From a virus, in IMG/VR virus record IMGVR_UViG_3300045988_114702: 64,000 bases of DNA; one strand, given 5' to 3'. The translations under genes and the position numbers were made by a program. Within the stretch, counting starts at the first letter, position 1, and the number at the start of each line of letters is the position of its first letter. The notes under the pieces are model-generated. The model searched no databases, was not told the origin of the DNA, and was given only the letters and a program-made list of their open reading frames with translations. Positions 2,859 through 38,076 of this stretch are shown in pieces.

Positions 2859-3371
2859 TCATGCCCCCTTTGGAAGGAGTGTCATATCATAGCCACTTTC
2901 CACGAACTTCACGCAGAGGTCATGCTTAATTCCGTTGCCAAGATAGGTGTAGATGTCCGCCATTTCCTCCCACGTAAAATTCGTACCCAGCAGCTTGTTG
3001 ATGCCCTCAAAGTGGAGTTTTCTTTCCTTCGGAGAAATGCCCTTAATTGCTGTGCGCGTAAGCCACTCCAGAATTTTTGCTTTCAGCTGGGTTTCATCGC
3101 TCACATCTCCCAGCCTGAAACAGGAATTGCTTCTCAGGCTGAAAATGAGCTCATTTTGCATATTCACGAACGACTGCGGAAACGCCGCCTGAATTTTCCT
3201 CGCCCACATGGTATCGAAAATGTTGAACCTTTCTACACCGCCTGTGGCTTCCGGCTCTTCTTTGGCAAGATAATCAATTGTATTTTCGACATCTGCCAGC
3301 GTGTGAATATGTCCCAGTGAACCTTCCATGCTCAGCACGGCCTTCAGCTGGTCAGCGTTAAGTGTTCTCAT
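2859..3371 (-). CDS. Hypothetical protein (170 aa)
   Basis: ATG follows a AAAGGAGG RBS and forms an ATGA overlap with the upstream stop. Confidence 0.5.
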   Translation of the reverse strand: MRTLNADQLKAVLSMEGSLGHIHTLADVENTIDYLAKEEPEATGGVERFNIFDTMWARKIQAAFPQSFVNMQNELIFSLRSNSCFRLGDVSDETQLKAKILEWLTRTAIKGISPKERKLHFEGINKLLGTNFTWEEMADIYTYLGNGIKHDLCVKFVESGYDMTLLPKGA

Positions 3372-3784
3372 TTTTTCGCTACCTCCTTTGCAGGCGCAGG
3401 CATCTCAGCCCACGCAATGATGTGGCCTCCAATGCTCTCATAACTATCCAGCCATTCCCCGTCTGTCGTATGGGACGTGGTCGTATATCGCTCTCCACCG
3501 GGGAACTCGACAGTTACAAGCACTTCATCCGACATGGTTTCAAACATCCCAAACCTCCACTGCTCAGTGTCCTTGAACTTTGCAAACCAAGATTCATGCT
3601 CAGGCGGCTTCCCAGTGCGCCAGTTCAGGCAGCTTGCAGGGTCAACAGCAGGGGCATTCTGAATCATCTCCGCGATGGCATCAGCTGTGCTGCTGTGATG
3701 GCCAAGCGCAGAGCCATTCTGCAAGCCCATGCTTGAGACCTTGTCGTACAGATCATCTGCGTAAATCAGTTTTTTCTCACTCAT
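3368..3784 (-). CDS. DUF551-like protein
   Basis: Start MSEKKLIY at 3784 follows AAGGGGG. The C-terminus reads WAEMPAPAKE. Confidence 0.45.
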   Translation of the reverse strand: MSEKKLIYADDLYDKVSSMGLQNGSALGHHSSTADAIAEMIQNAPAVDPASCLNWRTGKPPEHESWFAKFKDTEQWRFGMFETMSDEVLVTVEFPGGERYTTTSHTTDGEWLDSYESIGGHIIAWAEMPAPAKEVAKK

Positions 3785-4248
3785 TTTTTTGCTACCCCCT
3801 TCGGCGGCAAAGGCATCCACCCAACCACGGGAGAATCCACACGGTTATTGTAAACGTCATCCGGGTTGAAATAACGATATTCCCACCAGCCTTTAGGGAT
3901 AAAGTAATCATCGCTTTCTTCATCGTAGGTTCCCCACTCGAAAATTTCTTCCCAGTAGAAAGCGCTCTTTTCGGACAAGACTGTGCCATCTTCGTAGTGA
4001 GCCGTCGTAATCCCATATCCACCGCAGGCGGTTTCAAACAGAATCAGCACATCCTCTTCGACTTTCGGGGGATTTGCTTCGGGATTTCGCCATTCCGGCC
4101 ACAGGCTTACCGTGGACGCAGCCGCCACTGTTTTCTGAGCGTCTTTATAAGCCGCGCTGGCCGCAGCACTGTGTCCCTGCATCAAGCATTCCTTGCGGAA
4201 GAACCTCGCCATCAGGTCATTAGCATCAATCGGCCTTTTCTCGGTCAT
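3781..4248 (-). CDS. DUF551-like protein
   Basis: The C-terminus reads GWMPLPPKGV. 155-aa ORF. Confidence 0.45.
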   Translation of the reverse strand: MTEKRPIDANDLMARFFRKECLMQGHSAAASAAYKDAQKTVAAASTVSLWPEWRNPEANPPKVEEDVLILFETACGGYGITTAHYEDGTVLSEKSAFYWEEIFEWGTYDEESDDYFIPKGWWEYRYFNPDDVYNNRVDSPVVGWMPLPPKGVAKK

Positions 4249-25893: not shown

Positions 25894-27006
25894 ATGCCCT
25901 GCTATAAAGACGAAAAAACGGGAACTTGGTATTGCCAGTTTCGATATACTGATTTCACCGGAGCGCAGAAGCAGAAGCGCAAGCGCGGCTTCAAAACCCG
26001 CCGCGAAGCGCAGGAGTGGGAGCGGGAATTTCATCTGCAGAAAGCCAAAAGCTGTGATATGACACTTGCCAGCTTTGTGGAGTTATACTTCAACGACCGG
26101 GAGCATCATGTCCGTGGCACCACAATGGACACTAAGCGAAATATTTTTGACACCAAAATTGTTCCGCTTCTCGGAAACCGGAAAATGAACGAAATCACAG
26201 CCCTGGACATTCGAGACTGGCAACAGCGGGTCAAGGAGATGGGCGAAGCCACTGGTCTGCCTTATGCGGAAACGTATCTCTATACCATTCATGCACAGTT
26301 GACTGCCCTCTTTAACTATGCCCAGACATTCTACGGTCTGCAATTCAATCCGTGCGATGCAGCCGGCTACATGGGGTCCTCTATCGCCGGTGAAATGCTT
26401 ATCATCACAAAAGACCAGTACGAGATTTTACGAAAAGAATTTCGCAATGAGGCCTATCTTCTGGCATTTGATATTCTATTCTGGACAGGATGCCGTGAAG
26501 GTGAAATGTTGGCGCTGCTGCCGAAAGACCTGACTGATGATGACCAGTTGCGAATCTATAAAACTTATCACCGGAAAAAGGGTCAAGACATTCTCGGCCC
26601 CACCAAGAATAGCAAAAAGGGCGGCAACAGAAATGTGCCTATCCCCCATTGGCTGGCAGAAGAATTTCGTACCTACTGTTCTAAACTATACGGCCTGACC
26701 CCAGATGACCGGGTATTTTACATGACCTGTACAGCCCTCAACAAAGAATTGACCCGCTGCACCCAGATAACCTATCTGCCGGACATTCGTGTCCACGATC
26801 TTCGGCACAGCCACGTTTCTCTCTGTATCGAACTTGGGTACTCTATTGTTCTGGTGGCCAAGCGGATAGGGGATACTGTTCCTGTTGTCATGCGGACATA
26901 CGCCCATCTGTACCCCAATAAGCAGCAGGAACTCGTGTCAAGGCTGGAAACTCTCAGTACTTCCTCTTCCTCCAAGGATGAATCCGATTTGATGCCACTC
27001 GTCTAA
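25894..27006 (+). CDS. int: Tyrosine recombinase / phage integrase
   Basis: The N-terminus YKDEKTGTWYCQFRY... is an integrase arm-binding-type domain. The C-terminal HDLRHSH and RTYAHLY carry catalytic His/Tyr motifs. AGGAGG RBS. Confidence 0.85.
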   Translation: MPCYKDEKTGTWYCQFRYTDFTGAQKQKRKRGFKTRREAQEWEREFHLQKAKSCDMTLASFVELYFNDREHHVRGTTMDTKRNIFDTKIVPLLGNRKMNEITALDIRDWQQRVKEMGEATGLPYAETYLYTIHAQLTALFNYAQTFYGLQFNPCDAAGYMGSSIAGEMLIITKDQYEILRKEFRNEAYLLAFDILFWTGCREGEMLALLPKDLTDDDQLRIYKTYHRKKGQDILGPTKNSKKGGNRNVPIPHWLAEEFRTYCSKLYGLTPDDRVFYMTCTALNKELTRCTQITYLPDIRVHDLRHSHVSLCIELGYSIVLVAKRIGDTVPVVMRTYAHLYPNKQQELVSRLETLSTSSSSKDESDLMPLV

Positions 27007-27501: not shown

Positions 27502-27774
27502 TCACTCGCCGTCTTTTCTTTGGCCTGTCACAGGCTTTTCAAAGCCGGTCCGGTTTCGCACCCTCGGCTCAGGATTCGGTTCCCGAACCAGTATCTCAGT
27601 CGGGCTGCAGTCCAGCGCTTCGCAGATGAGGTCTAAATGGTTCAGATTCATCCGCTCGGCGATTTCGTTGTAGTAGTCGCTGATTGTAGTGGGGCGAATG
27701 CCCGTGGCGCGTGCCAGATCTGCTTGCGTCCATTTCAGCTCGCCTAGCTTCTTGGACAGTAAAATTCTAATCAT
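27502..27774 (-). CDS. XRE-family HTH regulator (90 aa)
   Basis: LKWTQADLARATGIRPTTISDYYN is an XRE HTH. A TGTTAGA motif lies upstream at 27833-27839. Confidence 0.65.
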   Translation of the reverse strand: MIRILLSKKLGELKWTQADLARATGIRPTTISDYYNEIAERMNLNHLDLICEALDCSPTEILVREPNPEPRVRNRTGFEKPVTGQRKDGE

Positions 27775-29470: not shown

Positions 29471-29635
29471 TTTATAGCATCGTATTCGGCTTGCAGGATT
29501 GCTCTCTGCTCACCATAATTTTCAGGCTCTTCTCCTGTTTCAGCTGAAATGTCCTCCCAGCAATCCAGAAGATGAACCGCCGATGCTAACAAAACTTCGA
29601 GCTTTTGTTCTCGGCTCAAATAAAAGCACCTTCCA

Positions 29636-29776
29636 TCAGGATTCCTTCGGTCGCGGACCGCAGATACGCAAGGCCTGCGCCTTGGTCAGCTCGCCCTCGT
29701 CAACCTTTTCCCACACGCCTGCAGCGGTGATCTTCTTCATGCGGTACATAGTGCGATAAAACTGTTCCTTGCCCAT
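29636..29776 (-). CDS. XkdX-like small protein (46 aa, not in ORF track)
   Basis: TAATG overlap with the upstream stop. MGKEQFYRTMYRMKKITAAGVWEKVDEGELTKAQALRICG resembles the XkdX family. Confidence 0.5.
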   Translation of the reverse strand: MGKEQFYRTMYRMKKITAAGVWEKVDEGELTKAQALRICGPRPKES

Positions 29777-30108
29777 TACAGCTCACCTCCCATAAACAGA
29801 GTTTCCAGCACGCTCACACGCTCTTCCAGAGAGGGCGCAGCTTCATCAGCGGTCGTCCATGCTTCTGCATAGACCCACCAATCATCAGCCGCCGCCGTGA
29901 TGCTTTCCACGGTTTCCTCTGCATAATCGGAACCCAACTTGCAAAGAGCCGTGGTGCACTCCCACGAAGTACCGCCCTGCTCTCCTTCGGGAGCCTCGGT
30001 TCGTACCTCATGAGCGTCCTTACGCAGGTACAGCCAAGCCGTACCGTCCGGCAGTTTTTCCAGCGTTACCGCCTGCGGATTATGGTCAAGGTTCTCGGTA
30101 AAAATCAT
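29776..30108 (-). CDS. Acidic hypothetical protein in the XkdW position
   Basis: 110 aa. Forms an ATGA overlap with the RT stop and is followed by the XkdX-like ORF. Confidence 0.45.
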   Translation of the reverse strand: MIFTENLDHNPQAVTLEKLPDGTAWLYLRKDAHEVRTEAPEGEQGGTSWECTTALCKLGSDYAEETVESITAAADDWWVYAEAWTTADEAAPSLEERVSVLETLFMGGEL

Positions 30109-31349
30109 GCTGCTATCCTCACTTTCTTCATTGCATTTCTTTGTGTCGTTACGCGGATTGCTACTTTTGCGGCCGTGAACAGCTTTTTCTGTTTTAGGGC
30201 TTCGCTGATTGCACGAGATTTTGTCCAGTCAAAATAGCCGTTATAGCTGACCAGCTTGTATGACCGCCAGACCGGCACATATCCATTTCGTGAAACATCA
30301 GCCTTGGCTCGAATGTACTGCCGCCGAGCCCTCAGAAAAATTCTGGGGCGTATCGTGGTGTAGGTACGGTGCATCACATAGCCAGCCATATCCAAACCCG
30401 GGCATCCTTTTGCCGCTCCCGTTAGGTGTCTGCGTTGATGCTCTTCAGCGGCGCTAAGAAAGTCCACACGAACCCACTCGTTTTTTATTGTCAATCCCAG
30501 TTCGGTCAGCGCCCACTTAGTCAATTTTCGGGCTGCACTCTGTATGTCAGCCCATCGTCGGCCAAACAAAACAAGGTCATCCATATAGCTACCGCTGCGG
30601 ATCACGAATCGCGTGGATGCTCCACGGCGAATCTTTGCATAACTCATGACCTTGACCAGCATATAGCTGGCAACAAGGTTAAAAAGCCACGCTTCAAGAT
30701 AGCCGCCGATAAGCAATCCCTCACCCGGAGCCATTGCTAAAAGACATTTGACAACAGCCAGAAGCCATGTTGCTCCCGGGATTTCTTTCTGCAGGATCTT
30801 CATCACAAGTTCCTGTTTTGTGTGGGCGTATGCCCCCTGCACATCCAGCTTTATTGCATACTGTATGCCAAGACTTTTTCTGCGAAGCCAACGCTCGACT
30901 TGACGCTTCAAAGCGATTTGTCCCTTGCCGGGAATACTGGCAAATTGATACGGCAACAGTTTTGCCTGAAGCAACGGGCGAAGTCCAAGTACCGCCAAAT
31001 GCCCAAAAGCTTGGTGCATTGGACAGCAGTTAGACAGTTCCCGCCGTTTCATGCTGATTCCATCAATTCTGTAGAACACGCTCACAGGGTCAAGATCAAG
31101 GTCGTCTGTTTCTCCGTCCAACAAATCTTCTATCCGTTGCTCCATTTCAAGAGCAATCCCATTTACGGCTTCTAAACGCGGGTTCCAGTCGTTTACGCGG
31201 GCGGCGCTCGATAGTTGTGCACGGCTTACACCTCCATATTTTTCCACCGTAGCGAGGTAATCCCGGCGGAACCATTTCTTATCAAAAGCTTCAAGGACAG
31301 CACGCTCGCACATTTCATGATTGAGCGACAAGTACCTCTTTGTTTTCAT
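30105..31349 (-). CDS. Reverse transcriptase (DGR-type by context)
   Basis: YMDDLVLFG catalytic box, and upstream RT motifs (RRELSNCCPMHQAFGHLA...ASIPGKG). ATG at 31349 follows GGAGG (the ORF is open to TTG at 31382). Confidence 0.85.
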   Translation of the reverse strand: MKTKRYLSLNHEMCERAVLEAFDKKWFRRDYLATVEKYGGVSRAQLSSAARVNDWNPRLEAVNGIALEMEQRIEDLLDGETDDLDLDPVSVFYRIDGISMKRRELSNCCPMHQAFGHLAVLGLRPLLQAKLLPYQFASIPGKGQIALKRQVERWLRRKSLGIQYAIKLDVQGAYAHTKQELVMKILQKEIPGATWLLAVVKCLLAMAPGEGLLIGGYLEAWLFNLVASYMLVKVMSYAKIRRGASTRFVIRSGSYMDDLVLFGRRWADIQSAARKLTKWALTELGLTIKNEWVRVDFLSAAEEHQRRHLTGAAKGCPGLDMAGYVMHRTYTTIRPRIFLRARRQYIRAKADVSRNGYVPVWRSYKLVSYNGYFDWTKSRAISEALKQKKLFTAAKVAIRVTTQRNAMKKVRIAA

Positions 31350-31592
31350 ATCCTTAAAGCCTCCAAACTTGCTGATGTTCAACGGATTTCGGTTGCCGTT
31401 TCAGGCCTTAAATCAGGCAAAACGGATTTCTACTACTCACCGCCACGCAGTCCCAAAAACTGCGGCCACGCTCTCACCAATGCGTCCGTATATCTCGAAA
31501 CGCTCAGCTACATGGTGTCGGTATAACATGATCTTAGTGGTCAAGCCACAGGCGCAATGAAACGCTTATGCCCTTTTGAGGGCTATTTATCA

Positions 31593-31742
31593 TCAGCATT
31601 CCGGGGCACGCCGTTCCAGCTCGAGTTCGCCGGGGAATTGTTGCCATTCGCGCAAGGCAGGCCGCAGTTAGCACCGTCATTCAGGTTGCCACCGCGCCAC
31701 GGGGCGTACAGACCCGCCGAACTGGGCGAAATAAACGCAGCC
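31593..31742 (-). repeat. DGR template repeat (TR)
   Basis: Non-coding copy of VR. 22 of its 24 coding-sense adenines differ in VR. The ORF-track entry 31583-31804 is its pseudo-translation. Confidence 0.85.
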
Positions 31743-31772
31743 ACACGCCGCTTCATTGCTCCATAAAATAAT

Positions 31773-31808
31773 CGGCTTGCGCCGATGGTAAACCATCGGC
31801 GCAAGCTG
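31773..31808 (-). terminator. GC-rich hairpin (14-bp perfect stem) with T-rich trail on the minus strand
   Basis: GCTTGCGCCGATGG-TAAA-CCATCGGCGCAAGC, followed on the minus strand by GATTATTTTAT. Confidence 0.5.
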
Positions 31809-31827
31809 GGAAACGTGAACAGGGATT

Positions 31828-31863
31828 AGGGGGTTACACCCCCTCTATGTGCCTACGGCACAT
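31828..31863 (-). promoter_or_regulatory. Two tandem 7-bp hairpins with identical triloops just 3' of the VR gene stop
   Basis: AGGGGGT-TAC-ACCCCCT (31828-31844) and ATGTGCC-TAC-GGCACAT (31847-31863). Confidence 0.45.
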
Positions 31864-31865
31864 AT

Positions 31866-33593
31866 TCACCCTCTCTTTTTGCCCGAGCCAGCAAGCCGGG
31901 GCACGCCGCACCAGCCCGAGAACGCCGGGGAAACGCCGCCAAACGCGCAAGGCAGGCCGCAGCAAGCACCGCCATACAGGTAGCCACCGCACCAAGGGGC
32001 GCACAGACCCGCCGAACCGGGCGAAACAAACGCAGCCCGTACATAGGTGGAACCGCTGCCATTGAACTTTTCATACATCATGGCTTCCGTACCCAACTTG
32101 CCCAGCTTACGGATATAGTGCCACGACCAAGTCGCCTTGTCGTTCAGGTCGAAGGAGCCGGTCTGGGCATAGTCCGAGGAGATAGAACCAACCTGCTTCT
32201 CACCGCTCTTGCAGGAGAACACGTCATAGTGCCAGTGGTCATCGTCCACGATGCTGGCTTTCCACAGAGGGTCAAGCTGTTCCGTATAAGCGCCGATCTG
32301 CATCTCGATGCCGGCCACACGGTACGGATATTTTCCGTTCGTCAGATTACCCCGACATCCATCGCTATGTCCCTGCACGCCCTCTGTTGTGCCGGACTCC
32401 CACGGCATAGTAGATACCAGCATCGTGGTCGTAGTGTCGATAGGAGAATCCAACTCAAGGTTCAGAGCCACATACTCGGTCTCGCTCACGGTCACATTGG
32501 TAATGCTGGAAATCTTGGCCCAGTTGAAAATATTGTGATTATAGTCCGTGTTGCGGTCCGTTCCCGTATTCTCGCCACGCTCACCCATGCAAACAGCAGA
32601 GCCCACAAGGAAATTTGCCCCCTGCGCTTTCGTCACGAGCACTCGCTTTACTCCCGTTTCCGCCACAGCAGGGCTGTACTGGTAATTATAGACAGTGCAG
32701 CCCTCCAGCTTGCCGCTGTTGCTCAGCGTCCAATGGCGCAGCCGCCACTGCGCCAGAACATACTGCTGGTCGCAGTCAGTCCACAGGGCATCATAAGCGG
32801 TGATTTTACGAGCCAGAGGGATAGCAGCGTTGGCGCTTGTCCACGGCATCGGGGGCAGTCCAGCACCGCTGGTCATTCCACCCTTGGAATTTTTGCCGCC
32901 AAGGAAAGCCGGGTGCCATGTCAGCCAGCGGCGACTCTTATCAGGGGCCACATCGCCAGCCATAGGATCATAGCCGCCGCCCTCGAAGGTGCGGAAAGAG
33001 TTATACAGGTATGCGCCATCCTCCCACTCCTTCAGCATCAAGGACAGAGCGAAGCAGTAAACGGGTGCGGTTTCGCCGGAAAGATCAAACCCGGTTTCAC
33101 CCTCAACTGCCAGCACGTTCATCGTGCCATCTTCCAAGGACAGCGCATTGGCGCGAATGTACCATGTGAAAGGATCCTCTTCCGACCAGTCTGCGGTTTC
33201 CGGGCTGGTGTCAGTCAGAAGCGGAGCCGCTTCACGCCCGTCTGCCAGATCATCCAGCGGGGTGCCGGTGTAATCACCACTCACATCATCACTGTAGAAG
33301 CGAACGGTGTAGGTTTTGCTGCGAGCGCTCTCTGCGAGCATTTTCGCAAAGCGTTCCAGGCGCTGATACTTCGTCACGCCATCACCGGCAGACAGCGGCC
33401 ACCAGCTCCAGAAGATTTCTGTGGTATTTTTGCCATCCAGCAGACCGCGGAATGTTGCATCCACGAATTCTGCGCCGGCAGTACCGGCAGCAATGCCTGC
33501 CAAAATGTCATTTTGGCGTTTCATCTGAGCGGCCAGTTCCAGACCGGTTTCATCGCTCATAGGATGATTGATAAGTTCCCATGTGTCACCCAT
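31866..33593 (-). CDS. DGR target protein (putative receptor-binding fibre protein with variable C-terminus)
   Basis: 575 aa located in the fibre locus. The last about 50 codons are the VR (...CAPWCGGYLYGGACCGLPCAFGGVSPAFSGWCGVPRL...). Confidence 0.8.
   Translation of the reverse strand: MGDTWELINHPMSDETGLELAAQMKRQNDILAGIAAGTAGAEFVDATFRGLLDGKNTTEIFWSWWPLSAGDGVTKYQRLERFAKMLAESARSKTYTVRFYSDDVSGDYTGTPLDDLADGREAAPLLTDTSPETADWSEEDPFTWYIRANALSLEDGTMNVLAVEGETGFDLSGETAPVYCFALSLMLKEWEDGAYLYNSFRTFEGGGYDPMAGDVAPDKSRRWLTWHPAFLGGKNSKGGMTSGAGLPPMPWTSANAAIPLARKITAYDALWTDCDQQYVLAQWRLRHWTLSNSGKLEGCTVYNYQYSPAVAETGVKRVLVTKAQGANFLVGSAVCMGERGENTGTDRNTDYNHNIFNWAKISSITNVTVSETEYVALNLELDSPIDTTTTMLVSTMPWESGTTEGVQGHSDGCRGNLTNGKYPYRVAGIEMQIGAYTEQLDPLWKASIVDDDHWHYDVFSCKSGEKQVGSISSDYAQTGSFDLNDKATWSWHYIRKLGKLGTEAMMYEKFNGSGSTYVRAAFVSPGSAGLCAPWCGGYLYGGACCGLPCAFGGVSPAFSGWCGVPRLAGSGKKRG
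31888..32037 (-). repeat. DGR variable repeat (VR)
   Basis: Aligns to TR at an offset of 295 nt. There are 24 mismatches, 22 of them at TR adenines. Confidence 0.85.
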
Positions 33594-33608
33594 TTCTTAT
33601 ACCCCCTT

Positions 33609-33872
33609 TTAGGTGCTTTTCTTGATGAAAAACGACAGTCGGCCGCTCTCGTCCGGGCCAAGTGCATAGCTTGCAGAAGCAGCGCTTGCCGCAGCCTGCT
33701 GGGCCGCAGCTGTCGTCTTGTTCAACAGATCCTTCGATGTCTCGGCAGCGGCCTTGCTGGTCTCTGCACTATCTTTCGCCGCATCCGCAACAGCTTTTGT
33801 CTGACTATACAGTTCATCCAATTTTGCTGCTGATTTCCTGCGAGCGATTGCGTAGGTCAAAATATCAATCAT
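33609..33872 (-). CDS. Small Ala/Ser-rich fibre-associated protein
   Basis: 87 aa. The C-terminus YALGPDESGRLSFFIKKST is shared with 34139-34726. Confidence 0.45.
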   Translation of the reverse strand: MIDILTYAIARRKSAAKLDELYSQTKAVADAAKDSAETSKAAAETSKDLLNKTTAAAQQAAASAASASYALGPDESGRLSFFIKKST

Positions 33873-33884
33873 ACGCCACCATCC

Positions 33885-34061
33885 TTACATCGGGTAGAAC
33901 TTCCCGGTAGAATCGGCTATGTAGATATTGCCTGTGTGGATAACCAGTGCTTGCGCCCCCATCGGTGCAGATTTGATATTCTGCAGGTCTGCTTCATCGT
34001 CGCAGTAGTACACCGTGGCCGGCTGGGCTGCGGTGCCATACTGCTGCATAACTTTGAACAT
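33885..34061 (-). CDS. Hypothetical small protein
   Basis: The likely start is MFKVMQQYG. The ORF is open to 34088. Confidence 0.35.
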   Translation of the reverse strand: MFKVMQQYGTAAQPATVYYCDDEADLQNIKSAPMGAQALVIHTGNIYIADSTGKFYPM

Positions 34062-34737: not shown

Positions 34738-36078
34738 TCAGCCGATTCCATTTTCATCAGCGAATTTCAGAAGGGCTGCTCTTTCGATTTTAAGAAACTC
34801 TTCATAGTCGGCAGCGGGAAGTATCTCGAGAGCATCATCTTTTGGCAGTTCAGCCTTGATGGGAAGGCAATCCCCTATTTCGATGTACCGCCGGTTGTGA
34901 TAGTATGCGCTTGCAAGAACGCGGGCTTTATGAACCCAGCAGATGCCCGTAAAGCGTTTATTGGCTGTGCCGTACATCTCATAGTTCAAACCGGAACACC
35001 AGCCACAGCCGGCAGATACAGGGCAGTCAATACACTTCTGCTCAGACTGTGAGGTGAGGGTAATCGCATCGAGTTCTGCTTTAGCCTTGCGTTGGGAATC
35101 AGTGGTATACAGACCATCATAGACGCTGCCGAAGCGAACTTTCTTCGACTTTTCCTCGCCAATACTAATGGGTGCGTATCGAATGCAGGGGTACGCAGAT
35201 CCATCAGGAGCAAACGATAGCATAGAGCCCGTGCCACCACAAAAGTTGTGATTGTCTTTAGCTCTCCCCCCTAAGAGGCTGTCAAAAATTGTGACCAGCA
35301 CATCCAGCCTATTGTTCACAATGTAGTTAGCCACAATTTTCAATTGGCTGTACAAAACATAGCCATCTGACGGATTATAAAGAGGCTCATAAGCATAGTT
35401 ACAGGCAATGCTGTCGCATCCCTCATTCAGCATCATTATGATGCTATCTGCGATATACTTGAACGAACCGGGAACAAAAGTCATTTTCGTTGAACCGTTC
35501 CAGCCGTACTTTTTACTGTCCTGAAACGCTTTCCACGCCTTTGCGAAGCTTCCGTTTCCATGTTCATCAAGTCGGTACATATCATGAAGCTCCTGCACGC
35601 CGTCAATACTGACGGTAACGGACATCATTTCATGATATTTCTCAAAAAGGTGCTGCGCTTCAGGACTGAACCACAGCTGACCGTTTGTGGCAAACGAAAT
35701 TCTGGTAAACGGCGCAAGAGGGATACTGCGTTTCCAGCATTGCTCAAACCAGTAATCGCAGATGTATTCAATCAAGGGGGCTTCCAGCAAAGGCTCTCCC
35801 CCGATAAAGTCAAGAACAACGGCTTTTGTGTCTTGGTTGACGAAGTCAGAGGTGTTCTGCTTATACAGATCCAGCAGATAATCAACGATTCTTTTGCCGG
35901 TTTCGGGAGTCATACTCTCCGCTCCTTTGTGATGCTCGTAGCAATACGAACACCTGAGATTGCACCCGCTGGTCACCTGAAATGTAACATTGCGACAAGC
36001 ACTTCGCGTTTCAGGTAAATCACGGCAGTACAGTCTCTGGACAGAGTTTCCGTAATCCTCAAACCGTTTGCTTTTCAA
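34738..36078 (-). CDS. Radical SAM enzyme with C-terminal SPASM domain (peptide/protein maturase-like)
   Basis: CNLRCSYC (CX3CX2C). SPASM-type CGGTGSMLSFAPDGSAYPC and CIDCPVSAGCGWC. TTG at 36078 lies 9 nt after GGAGG (the ORF is open to GTG at 36132). Confidence 0.8.
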   Translation of the reverse strand: MKSKRFEDYGNSVQRLYCRDLPETRSACRNVTFQVTSGCNLRCSYCYEHHKGAESMTPETGKRIVDYLLDLYKQNTSDFVNQDTKAVVLDFIGGEPLLEAPLIEYICDYWFEQCWKRSIPLAPFTRISFATNGQLWFSPEAQHLFEKYHEMMSVTVSIDGVQELHDMYRLDEHGNGSFAKAWKAFQDSKKYGWNGSTKMTFVPGSFKYIADSIIMMLNEGCDSIACNYAYEPLYNPSDGYVLYSQLKIVANYIVNNRLDVLVTIFDSLLGGRAKDNHNFCGGTGSMLSFAPDGSAYPCIRYAPISIGEEKSKKVRFGSVYDGLYTTDSQRKAKAELDAITLTSQSEQKCIDCPVSAGCGWCSGLNYEMYGTANKRFTGICWVHKARVLASAYYHNRRYIEIGDCLPIKAELPKDDALEILPAADYEEFLKIERAALLKFADENGIG

Positions 36079-36361
36079 ACAACTGCACCTCCTTCCGTCC
36101 AAAGTCAAATTGGTATCCGTTGAAAGGTTCACTGCTCAAATCGATGTGGTTTTTCAGTACCGCGTTCTGCGCCATCTGCAGTTTCATGTGGGCCATACGG
36201 CACAGTTCCGCATAGTGCATGATAATTTCCTTTGTATCGGAGTTTGCTTTGGCGTTCAGTTGGCGGTTGAGTACTGCCATAATTTTTTCGTATGAATCAA
36301 CCTCATAAAATGCCCGTTCCACAGTCTCGCTTTCGACTTGGGACAGTTCAATAATCTTCAT
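36059..36361 (-). CDS. Small helical protein of the radical-SAM cassette
   Basis: 100 aa lying between the Cys-repeat gene and the maturase. Possibly the accessory protein of CXXX-repeat systems. Confidence 0.45.
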   Translation of the reverse strand: MKIIELSQVESETVERAFYEVDSYEKIMAVLNRQLNAKANSDTKEIIMHYAELCRMAHMKLQMAQNAVLKNHIDLSSEPFNGYQFDFGRKEVQLFEKQTV

Positions 36362-36972: not shown

Positions 36973-38076
36973 TTACCACAAAAGTCCTCCAGAACAATTT
37001 CCTCCACAACTCCCGCTGCAGCTACCACTACAGCTACCACTGCAGGAGCCAGAGCAACCGTCGCAACTGGTATCGCAACTGCTCGTACAGCGCTCGCCGC
37101 AGTGCGAATTGCATGAACCCTTGCAACTATTAGAACAGCCCGATTCACAGTTCAAAAGGCAACCTGAACCCGTGCAGGTTTCCTGACAGTCACTAGCGCA
37201 ATAGCTTTTGCAGTTCGTGGTACAGTTACTTGCACAGTCGTCTGCGCAATTTGCGCTACAGCTTCCCTCACAAGTACTTGAACATCCATCACAACTACCA
37301 GAACATCCTCCCTTGCAGGATGTCTTGCAATTGTTAGTGCAGTTATCCGCACACGTCTTTGTACAGCTTCCTGTGCAACTACCAGTACAAGTGCCTACGC
37401 ACGTTCCAGCGCATGTACCTGTGCAACCGCCAGCACAACTTCCCCCGCAGTCATTGGCACACGTCTTCGTACAGGTTCCTGTGCAGGTGCCGGTACAGCT
37501 GCCAGTACAGGTGCCTGTACAGGTGCTGGTACAGTCGTTGGCGCACGACTTAGTGCAGGAACCCGTGCAAGTCCCTGTGCAAGTGCTCACACAAGAGCCG
37601 GTGCATGAGCCGGTGCAATCATTGGCACAGCTTTTTGTGCACGAGCCGGTACAGCCTCCCGTACATGAGCCGGTACAGCTGGAACAGGCTGAATAGCAAC
37701 CCGTAGTGCAGAGCCCCGAGCAAGCCCCGCCGCAGCCGCTGGATGTTGCAGTTTCAGAAATCGCGCTCAATTGGCTAAGCAGTGCAGCCGCCCGGGTGAG
37801 CACATCTGCAGCGACCTTGGAGCCGTTTTCCGGTGTGATAGCGCTTCCGGTAATCGCCGAGATAGGCTGTGTAATTTTCTGGATGTGCTCATTGGTAATT
37901 TGCCTACCGGCCGCAGGGACGACAGAAAAAGAACTGATATAAGCCGCCATGCTTCCAACGCTCTGGCCCTGTCCTGTCCCTTCGCTTTTTCCGCGACGAT
38001 TAAGTTCAGCGTCCAGCTGTTTTTTAAGTTCTGTGTAGTCGGCCGAGTAAACCTTTGTGCTTCTTTGAGCCATCAC
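36973..38076 (-). CDS. CXXX-repeat protein (367 aa, 63 Cys)
   Basis: A 114-aa ordinary N-terminus is followed by 63 Cys spaced CX3 almost without interruption (CTGSCTGSCTKSCANDC...). The ATG overlaps the tail-fibre stop. Confidence 0.7.
   Translation of the reverse strand: MMAQRSTKVYSADYTELKKQLDAELNRRGKSEGTGQGQSVGSMAAYISSFSVVPAAGRQITNEHIQKITQPISAITGSAITPENGSKVAADVLTRAAALLSQLSAISETATSSGCGGACSGLCTTGCYSACSSCTGSCTGGCTGSCTKSCANDCTGSCTGSCVSTCTGTCTGSCTKSCANDCTSTCTGTCTGSCTGTCTGTCTKTCANDCGGSCAGGCTGTCAGTCVGTCTGSCTGSCTKTCADNCTNNCKTSCKGGCSGSCDGCSSTCEGSCSANCADDCASNCTTNCKSYCASDCQETCTGSGCLLNCESGCSNSCKGSCNSHCGERCTSSCDTSCDGCSGSCSGSCSGSCSGSCGGNCSGGLLW
36994..37734 (-). repeat. 12-nt-periodic coding tandem repeat (TGY-NNN-NNN-NNN)n
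   Basis: This is the DNA encoding the CXXX tract. It also produces spurious VQLPVQ-type ORFs on the opposite strand. Confidence 0.7.

Follow-up and report, generated by a model that had tools for sequence, protein, structure and literature searches.

A diversity-generating retroelement with signs of recent function in a Faecalibacterium prophage

Introduction

The 64,000-nt stretch of viral DNA studied here (IMG/VR virus record IMGVR_UViG_3300045988_114702; 'the window' below means this whole stretch) carries a reverse transcriptase (RT) gene and two copies of a 150-nt repeat, one of them inside the end of a protein-coding gene. The question is whether this locus is a diversity-generating retroelement (DGR), that is, a system that copies a template repeat (TR) into a variable repeat (VR) with errors at adenines and, if so, whether it still works and what kind of protein it varies. 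An earlier reading of the DNA alone (the original prediction) had proposed such an element, with a probable receptor-binding protein at a fibre locus as its target. All the defining elements that we examined agree with the DGR reading, and we consider it very likely that the locus is a functional, or very recently functional, DGR of a Faecalibacterium prophage.

The cassette runs in the order target gene with VR, twin hairpins, terminator-like hairpin, TR, 243-nt structured spacer, RT gene and a small gene that we call orf110. It is a well-supported but ordinary DGR, belonging to a kind of system already common in Faecalibacterium phages, and it leaves the understanding of DGRs unchanged. Faecalibacterium is a keystone, health-associated genus of the gut, and its temperate phages use DGRs unusually often. 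Features that merit the attention of specialists are the altered motif 4 of the RT, the long covarying spacer RNA, the always-linked orf110 and a large unannotated family of target proteins.

The template and variable repeats

The VR (31888..32037, minus strand) makes up the last ~50 codons of the open reading frame (ORF) 31866-33593, as originally proposed, and the TR (31593..31742, minus strand), located by repeat search and exact alignment, is a non-coding, AAY-rich copy 295 nt downstream. A separate repeat search recovered the same direct repeat (31594-31742 / 31889-32037, spacing 295). The edges of the homology are abrupt, starting at 31742/32037 and ending at 31593/31888, and across lineages the TR has no conserved reading frame. 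Only one VR is present; A-masked scoring and blastn found no second one within the window.

The exact minus-strand alignment of the two repeats is ungapped over 150 nt and contains 24 mismatches. TR adenines account for 22 of these (Fisher exact p=5.6e-22), and 22 of the 24 TR adenines are changed in the VR, to G in 11 cases, to T in 10 and to C in one. The locus hence displays two hallmarks of a DGR: the repeats differ almost only at TR adenines, which change to any base, and the VR occupies the 3' end of a coding gene with the TR nearby as a separate copy. The positions, the mismatch counts and the enrichment at adenines that had been claimed from a by-eye alignment were all upheld, and the TR and VR translations quoted with them, including the AAY-rich one of the TR, proved correct. 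Within the VR, the A-templated mutable sites extend across 31909-32027.

The two other mismatches fall at VR positions 31991 and 31995. The C>T change turns an Arg into a Cys, and at the G>T site the TR of one relative (L018) itself has a T. Candidate sources of these changes are point mutation after homing, rare misincorporation opposite a base other than adenine, or an older TR allele.

Both repeats contain a GC-rich 13-nt block, CGGCGTGCCCCGG (VR 31896..31908, minus strand; identical to TR 31601-31613), whose identity in the two copies had been noted originally and is confirmed; it resembles the 5' part of an initiation of mutagenic homing (IMH) site. Directly after the block the VR reads CTTGCTGG (31888-31895, minus strand), with three fixed differences from the IMH*-like end of the TR, AATGCTGA (31593-31600, minus strand). 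These three terminal adenine differences (AA..A in the TR and CT..G in the VR, at VR 31895, 31894 and 31888) are invariant in 13 of 13 VRs from close relatives. Since they do not vary, we read them as a fixed difference of the IMH/IMH* type and not as a product of mutagenesis, so that real diversification amounts to 19 of 21 adenines in this copy. The 22 adenine substitutions that had been offered as the signature of mutagenesis can thus be kept for 19 sites and not for the remaining three. Together, the common GC-rich block and the following 8 nt, differing at three fixed positions, have the form expected of an IMH/IMH* pair.

Diversification among related elements

A search with the RT protein gave 54 loci, 49 on viral contigs and five in genomes. 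An identical RT protein (100%) occurs in 13 of the 49 viral-contig loci; a TR/VR pair was found in nine of these 13, and each VR is different. More widely, all 36 related loci in which both repeats were found have their own adenine-biased pair with all three substitution types, and in many of them every mismatch lies at a TR adenine (e.g. 17/17, 19/19, 21/21). Among 13 close elements, the VR varies at 21 of the 24 TR-adenine columns, and the few variable columns that are not adenine-templated coincide with differences in the TR of the lineage concerned. Because the VR in this way mirrors the non-A substitutions of its cognate TR, information must flow from TR to VR.

A diversity profile over 14 loci was not clean, as lineages also differ in the middle of the target gene, and pairwise comparisons of near-identical elements were used instead. 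The elements L010 and L014 differ at only one of 1556 positions in the rest of the target gene and at one of 150 in the TR, yet at 10 of the 24 A-templated VR sites and at none of the other 126 VR sites. Likewise, the window and L016 have identical TRs (0/150) and differ at 14 of 1556 positions in the rest of the gene, at 15 of the 24 A-templated sites and at two of the other 126. The TR of the window is in fact 100% identical to those of both L014 and L016, whose VRs differ from its own at 15-16 of the 24 A-sites. In general, close relatives share the TR with little or no change, and the VR is variable.

This variability is extensive. Fourteen independent contigs with a common non-adenine scaffold carry 14 different VR alleles, and all four bases occur at their A-sites (A 73, T 56, G 54, C 27). 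In addition, single clusters of the target at 90% identity in the protein database each hold 3000-4000 distinct members. Compared between assemblies, hypervariability of the VR is thus confined to the A-templated sites. The proposed adenine-directed retrohoming from TR to VR is supported on each of these counts, that is, by the A-specific divergence of the repeats, by its recurrence in 36 loci and by hypervariability limited to A-sites. As the differences are between assemblies and not within one population, they speak for recent activity of the family, not of this copy.

Some target homologues in the databases (P0014, P0038, P0046, P0094) end in unmutated TR-encoded sequence followed by TR-flanking residues (...ANGNNSPANSNWNGVPRHADD...). 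In these, VR and TR have collapsed into one, either as an assembly artefact at the repeat or by a real VR-TR deletion.

The reverse transcriptase

The RT gene (30105..31349, minus strand) encodes 414 amino acids and matches PHROG 1423 'reverse transcriptase' at E=1e-61; the YMDD box reported for this ORF is present, as SYMDDLV. A profile of the RT clade, built from 26 members with 45-91% identity, has a single match in the PDB at E<=1, 8ub7_A (E=2.8e-8), and no retron or group II RT of the PDB is matched at that threshold. By sequence comparison, 8ub7_A proved to be brt of Bordetella phage BPP-1 (100% identity), and Butyrivibrio phage RTs are matched both by the window RT and by the BPP-1 enzyme (bRT). 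These similarities point to membership in the DGR RT clade, and the expectation that the enzyme would not group with retron or group II RTs is borne out by these matches.

A retron or group II intron identity of the RT was considered and rejected. An Rfam scan of 29500-34000 gave no match at E<=1, group II intron and retron RNAs included; the only NCBIfam match of the protein, a group II RT model, reaches 27 bits against a cutoff of 300; and the PDB gave no match of this kind.

In DGR RTs, motif 4 usually takes the form [I/L/V]GxxxSQ. Here it reads LLIGGYLEAWLFN, and the clade consensus is IGGY[LMP][ED][AS]W with an invariant W221; bRT reads IGSLTSQ. The aspartates of YMDD are invariant, and so is the motif 4 I-G pair (bRT I181 and G182, clade I214 and G215). 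DGR RTs are said to be defined by a unique sequence motif (bioRxiv 10.1101/432187), and we class the window enzyme, on these alignments, among the DGR RTs, its motif 4 being atypical.

Two kinds of altered RT gene were seen among the relatives. At one locus (L057, 5-576) the RT match falls into two pieces separated by a break, residues 211-303 and 308-400 (71-73% identity), which suggests a disrupted RT gene; an intact orf110 homologue lies downstream. Two others (L070 and L071, 6001-7404; proteins P0167-P0182) carry 467-aa chimeric ORFs that join, in one frame, a phage-integrase N-terminus (Arm-DNA-bind_4 and SAM_3) and the C-terminal ~60% of the RT (91% identity). The chimera is followed by orf110, an M23 lysin and a helix-turn-helix (HTH) gene, and these loci have no target, VR or TR. 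The chimeric protein is found on at least 24 contigs, with different upstream neighbourhoods in the two loci examined, and looks like a widespread prophage remnant from a deletion that ran from an integrase gene into the RT gene.

Spacer RNA and hairpins

The spacer (Sp) RNA region between TR and RT gene covers 243 nt (31350..31592, minus strand) and not the ~210 nt first estimated. It is 73-75% identical at the nucleotide level to the spacers of distant lineages, versus 66-71% for the RT gene. RNAalifold on 32 distinct spacer sequences gave 61 pairs in ten helices. Standard pairs fill 98.1% of the cells, versus 31-39% when the partners are slid by 1-3 columns, and 17 pairs have changed on both sides in a compensatory manner, versus 0-6 when slid; none of 500 shuffles reached the observed values. 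The alignment draws on no more than four or five lineages, so the independent events behind these counts are few. The spacer is a conserved structured RNA, and it matches no Rfam family.

The helix that closes the structure (helix 1) is of particular interest for priming. Its 3' arm, CATCAGCA (31370..31377, minus strand), lies ~20 nt before the ribosome-binding site of the RT gene and pairs with TGCTGATG (31591-31598) at the 3' end of the TR. In BPP-1, TR 118-129 pairs with Sp 47-56 and presents Sp A56 as primer beside the first templated base (bioRxiv 10.1101/2023.10.23.563531). Conservation and the analogy to BPP-1 make helix 1 a candidate template:primer duplex. A 'cPRT stop' duplex as in BPP-1, between the sequence upstream of the TR and the spacer, was not found by eye, the only way in which it was looked for.

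Downstream of the VR, twin hairpins begin 2 nt after the stop codon of the target in five lineages, with differing stem sequences and z-scores of -3.5 to -5.9. In the window, hairpin A (31846..31864, minus strand; stem TATGTGCC/GGCACATA, loop GTA) is followed by hairpin B (31828..31844, minus strand; AGGGGGT GTA ACCCCCT), which keeps its position and has another stem in distant lineages. A hairpin or cruciform downstream of the VR is a further trait of DGRs to which the locus appears to conform, and hairpin A is a candidate target-recognition hairpin or cruciform that may act in homing. A third, terminator-like hairpin (31775..31806, minus strand; a stem of 14-15 bp and then a T-run) lies between VR and TR. 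The transcript that carries TR, spacer and RT could come from read-through or from an unrecognised promoter.

Proposed mechanism

By analogy with BPP-1, we infer the following course of events. A transcript with TR and spacer would fold such that the 3' part of the spacer, CAUCAGCA, pairs with the 3' end of the TR, UGCUGAUG, setting a spacer adenosine as a cis-primer beside the GC-rich block. The RT would then copy the TR toward its 5' end, misincorporating opposite adenines, and the resulting cDNA would replace the VR, with the 3' crossover inside the common, IMH-like GC block and the 5' crossover set by homology. As a result, about 21 nucleotide positions in about 12 codons, mostly AAY, would vary at the C-terminus of a tail-fibre or baseplate-attached receptor-binding protein, on its ligand-binding surface. 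Variation at such a receptor-binding tip would alter host or receptor specificity.

The target protein

The target gene (31866..33593, minus strand) encodes 575 amino acids with the VR at the C-terminus and matches phrog_17147, of unknown function, at E=1.8e-219. Pfam, NCBIfam and PHROGs give it no functional name, and Pfam returns no match even at E<=10. An exhaustive search with the C-terminal 276 residues brought up 474 clusters at 50% identity; in all listed full-length matches this module is C-terminal, in proteins of 260-1365 aa. Among 67 family members scanned for N-terminal domains, BppU_N occurs in five, collagen in four and phage fibre repeats in one; CBM domains occur in two (one of each of two types) and a head fibre domain in one. 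Lacking a Pfam model and joined to a wide range of fibre or baseplate N-termini, this family would lend itself to annotation as a DGR-diversifiable receptor-binding tip.

The gene closes the tail/baseplate block of the prophage, where its neighbours encode a Dit-like protein, a baseplate plug of the Pam3 gp18 type, a DUF2612 protein, a cement protein and proteins matching tail-fibre PHROGs. After the DGR come the lysis genes, among them one for an M23/peptidoglycan-binding endolysin. The target would accordingly seem to be a gene of the tail/baseplate module with a modular C-terminal tip, carried in its family on N-termini that anchor to fibre or baseplate, and it is probably a tail-fibre or receptor-binding protein. 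The receptor-binding protein at a fibre locus that had been proposed is in this way backed as to its place in the tail/baseplate block and the fibre-type N-termini of its homologues, and the binding itself is presumed from them.

With respect to fold, a profile of the target family built from 100 members has one meaningful match in the PDB, 5vf4_A (TaqVP, E=1.4e-4), in which VR is aligned on VR (residues 341-381 in TaqVP; bioRxiv 10.1101/432187), with R..W...G.L..G..AGL...............W....R in common. The match is weak and extends over two short stretches. It faintly suggests a C-type-lectin fold of the target C-terminus.

Points against and alternative explanations

Several observations weigh against the locus being a working DGR with a receptor-binding target. 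In this copy two mismatches lie away from adenines (TR 31696, C>T; TR 31700, G>T), while most relatives have zero. Pfam RVT_1 scores the RT at 23.7 bits, below its threshold of 29.6. The residue Q187 of bRT, reported to contact the incoming dNTP (bioRxiv 10.1101/2023.10.23.563531), is not conserved and aligns with the invariant tryptophan or an alanine. No Avd, HRDC or MSL/MutS-like accessory gene was recognised in the flanking ORFs or in 36 small minus-strand prophage ORFs (Pfam, NCBIfam, E<=0.1). The terminator-like hairpin at 31775-31806 separates the target gene from the TR, and upstream of the TR (31743-31774) no sigma-70-like promoter for TR and RT was found. Both arms of helix 1 are invariant in the 32 spacer sequences, so covariation lends it no support. 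The activity of this particular copy is read from differences between assemblies. Finally, the AlphaFold model of the target is poor (mean predicted local distance difference test (pLDDT) score 41, ~25 over the VR; 34 homologues, at least 63% identity) and was not used for a fold search; for the C-type-lectin/FGE-like fold, which structure prediction had been suggested to check, the weak TaqVP match is what stands.

These points bear unequally on the alternatives. It is unlikely, although deserving of some weight, that the DGR is real and its target does not bind a receptor, being e.g. a decoration or adhesion protein for mucus or environmental ligands. The missing Pfam assignment and the poor fold model leave room for this, in other Faecalibacterium phages the targets of the DGRs are Hoc-like Ig proteins (PMC5883640), and the CBM and head fibre domains of some family members would suit it. 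Against it stands the position of the gene at the distal end of the tail/baseplate block, right before the lysis genes and beside a tail-fibre-like protein, as well as the fact that BppU_N and collagen or fibre repeats are the commonest recognisable N-termini of the family.

We think it quite improbable that the cassette of this prophage has decayed and no longer diversifies, with the TR/VR differences left as a fossil of past activity. The two non-adenine mismatches and the lack of a recognised accessory gene would fit such decay, a relative with a split RT match exists (L057), and Gulyaeva et al. saw no read-level VR variation in culture for several Faecalibacterium DGR prophages (PMC11792537). 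On the other hand, the RT ORF is intact, and its protein is the one found unchanged in 13 viral contigs with all nine detected pairs differing in VR; the TR, the spacer helices and the hairpins are intact and consensus-like; and a TR identical to those of L014 and L016 sits beside VRs that differ at most A-sites.

An ordinary duplication, diverged by point mutation, recombination or editing beside an unrelated retron, group II intron or Abi-type RT, could claim the weak RVT_1 score, the lone group II model in NCBIfam and the 'retron-type' annotation of some database relatives, yet it has already failed the tests applied here and we give it practically no credence, given mismatches tied to one base of one copy in a pattern that recurs in 36 loci, A>G, A>T and A>C changes that are all frequent and so exclude deamination or editing, a group II score far below cutoff, a clade profile that matches only bRT in the PDB, and the absence of any group II intron or retron RNA from Rfam.

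Comparison with known systems

The functional, or very recently functional, DGR that we favour operates in the manner of the BPP-1 prototype (mtd-avd-TR-brt). In both, the VR lies at the 3' end of a gene for a tail fibre (here, a probable one), an A-rich, non-coding TR sits just upstream of the RT gene, and transfer from TR to VR is adenine-specific. Both also have a GC-rich block in TR and VR followed by a short differing stretch (IMH/IMH*), a hairpin just past the VR and a structured spacer between TR and RT able to pair with the 3' end of the TR; bRT is, moreover, the only solved relative of the window RT. The differences are that no avd gene was found in the window element, that its RT has 414 aa against 328 in bRT and its spacer 243 nt against 140 nt, that its motif 4 reads IGGYLEAW where bRT has IGSLTSQ, and that its proposed primer strand lies near the 3' end of the spacer whereas that of BPP-1 is mid-spacer. 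In addition, the window element has an acidic 110-aa gene after the RT, and its host is a Gram-positive gut anaerobe.

DGRs have been described in 10 of 18 Faecalibacterium prophages (PMC5883640), and further ones in PMC11792537; the named elements are those of Lagaffe, Mushu, Taranis, Toutatis, Epona, Brigit, Roos, Pioen, Lelie and CP11 (PMC5883640, PMC11792537). They share with the window element the host genus, the temperate context and a structural-protein target, and several resemble it further in having no Avd and a target whose function is not known. Their activity, too, was judged from variation among cognate IMG/VR genomes (PMC5883640, PMC11792537). Unlike theirs, the window target has no DUF6273, Mtd-like or Ig match in Pfam, and the window element has one VR, not two. 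At the sequence level the cassette does not appear to be among the described Faecalibacterium phages: a megablast search against 50,697 phage records gave no match, and tblastn with the window RT and target against the phage collection returned no Faecalibacterium phage record. The best protein matches in that collection are uncultured faecal contigs at 40-48% identity. The element is in keeping with the clades of gut-phage DGRs aimed at tail proteins that Roux et al. described (PMC8144416).

TaqVP of Thermus aquaticus (PDB 5VF4), which has an FGE-type C-type-lectin fold, is comparable in that its C-terminal VR aligns, weakly, with the VR of the target family; unlike the target, it is a cellular protein of an Avd-bearing DGR.

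Accessory genes and orf110

Avd or another known accessory is missing from 26-29% of DGRs; among curated DGRs, 29% are devoid of any accessory gene, and one RT lineage is entirely without avd (PMC5758913). Faecalibacterium phage DGRs are likewise mostly without a recognisable Avd (PMC5883640). The window element, with target, TR and RT on one strand and no avd, HRDC or MSL found, resembles the accessory-less DGRs of Architecture A1, which consist of a TR-RT core (Wu et al. 2018, PMC5758913). It would offer a compact system in which to study the priming and control of DGR reverse transcription where Avd is missing.

Directly after the RT gene comes orf110 (29776..30108, minus strand), which encodes an acidic protein of 110 aa (isoelectric point (pI) 4.06); its start and the stop codon of the RT gene overlap in ATGA. 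In each of the 54 loci it is the gene immediately 3' of the RT, including distant ones (49-58% identity) in which the upstream fibre and downstream lysis genes have been swapped, and again in four further contigs recovered via orf110 itself. The family is small, with only 76 clusters in 5.8 billion, and is confined to this cassette. The phage collection gave no match, and neither Pfam, NCBIfam nor PHROGs supply a functional name. A confident AlphaFold (AF2) model with pLDDT 82 shows a four-stranded sheet with helices. When orf110 was considered as a substitute for Avd, the model proved not to be a four-helix bundle. The PDB gave no sequence match and no fold match (best E=0.2 for the fold), and in BFVD the only matches are to uncharacterised proteins of ~105 aa from uncultured gut siphoviruses (E=1.7e-5, TM 0.52).

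A small acidic protein, CH1, accompanies some Avd-less DGRs (PMC5758913), and in having such a protein of unknown function beside the cassette the window element resembles the Avd-less Lineage 3 DGRs (pI 4.7 for CH1). The two are compared by description only: CH1, at 160-169 aa, has been reported solely from Bacteroides-type Lineage 3a, and orf110, at 110 aa, belongs to Faecalibacterium-type phages. We regard orf110 as a candidate DGR accessory factor, or as a candidate fibre chaperone that is still linked to its target. A bolder idea is that the RT clade represents a mechanistically distinct, Avd-independent mode of DGR action, in which the tryptophan would take the place of the glutamine, the longer and differently organised 243-nt spacer would provide the scaffolding otherwise given by Avd, and orf110 would be an essential accessory. 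We find this doubtful, though the chance that it is right is a real one.

Prophage context and host

Of the five genome loci, two lie in Faecalibacterium metagenome-assembled genomes (MAGs) and match the window RT at 100%, and a third, in F. prausnitzii strain 2 (CP186691, locus L052), matches it at 91%; for those in Bulleidia and Subdoligranulum MAGs the figure is 66-67%. On these matches, the host is Faecalibacterium and the element is prophage-borne. Similarity to the two Faecalibacterium MAG loci ends at window position ~27245, between a Cro/C1-type HTH gene (27502-27774, minus strand) and a tyrosine-integrase-like gene (25894-27006, plus strand). This point probably marks either the end of the prophage or the border of a module.

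Just upstream of the target, the tail-fibre block also holds two linked genes (34738-36132 and 36973-38076, both minus strand), for a radical SAM/SPASM peptide maturase and a CxxxCxxx-repeat protein. The best model for the maturase is TIGR04115, of the CXXX-repeat target family (295 bits against a cutoff of 350), and it is kept in close relatives at 73-99%. Its companion, a protein of 367 aa, consists almost wholly of CxxxCxxx repeats (CTGSCTGSCTKSCANDC...; TIGR04117/TIGR04114, phrog_6085). A protein of a phage structural module with what appears to be its own radical SAM maturase is unusual.

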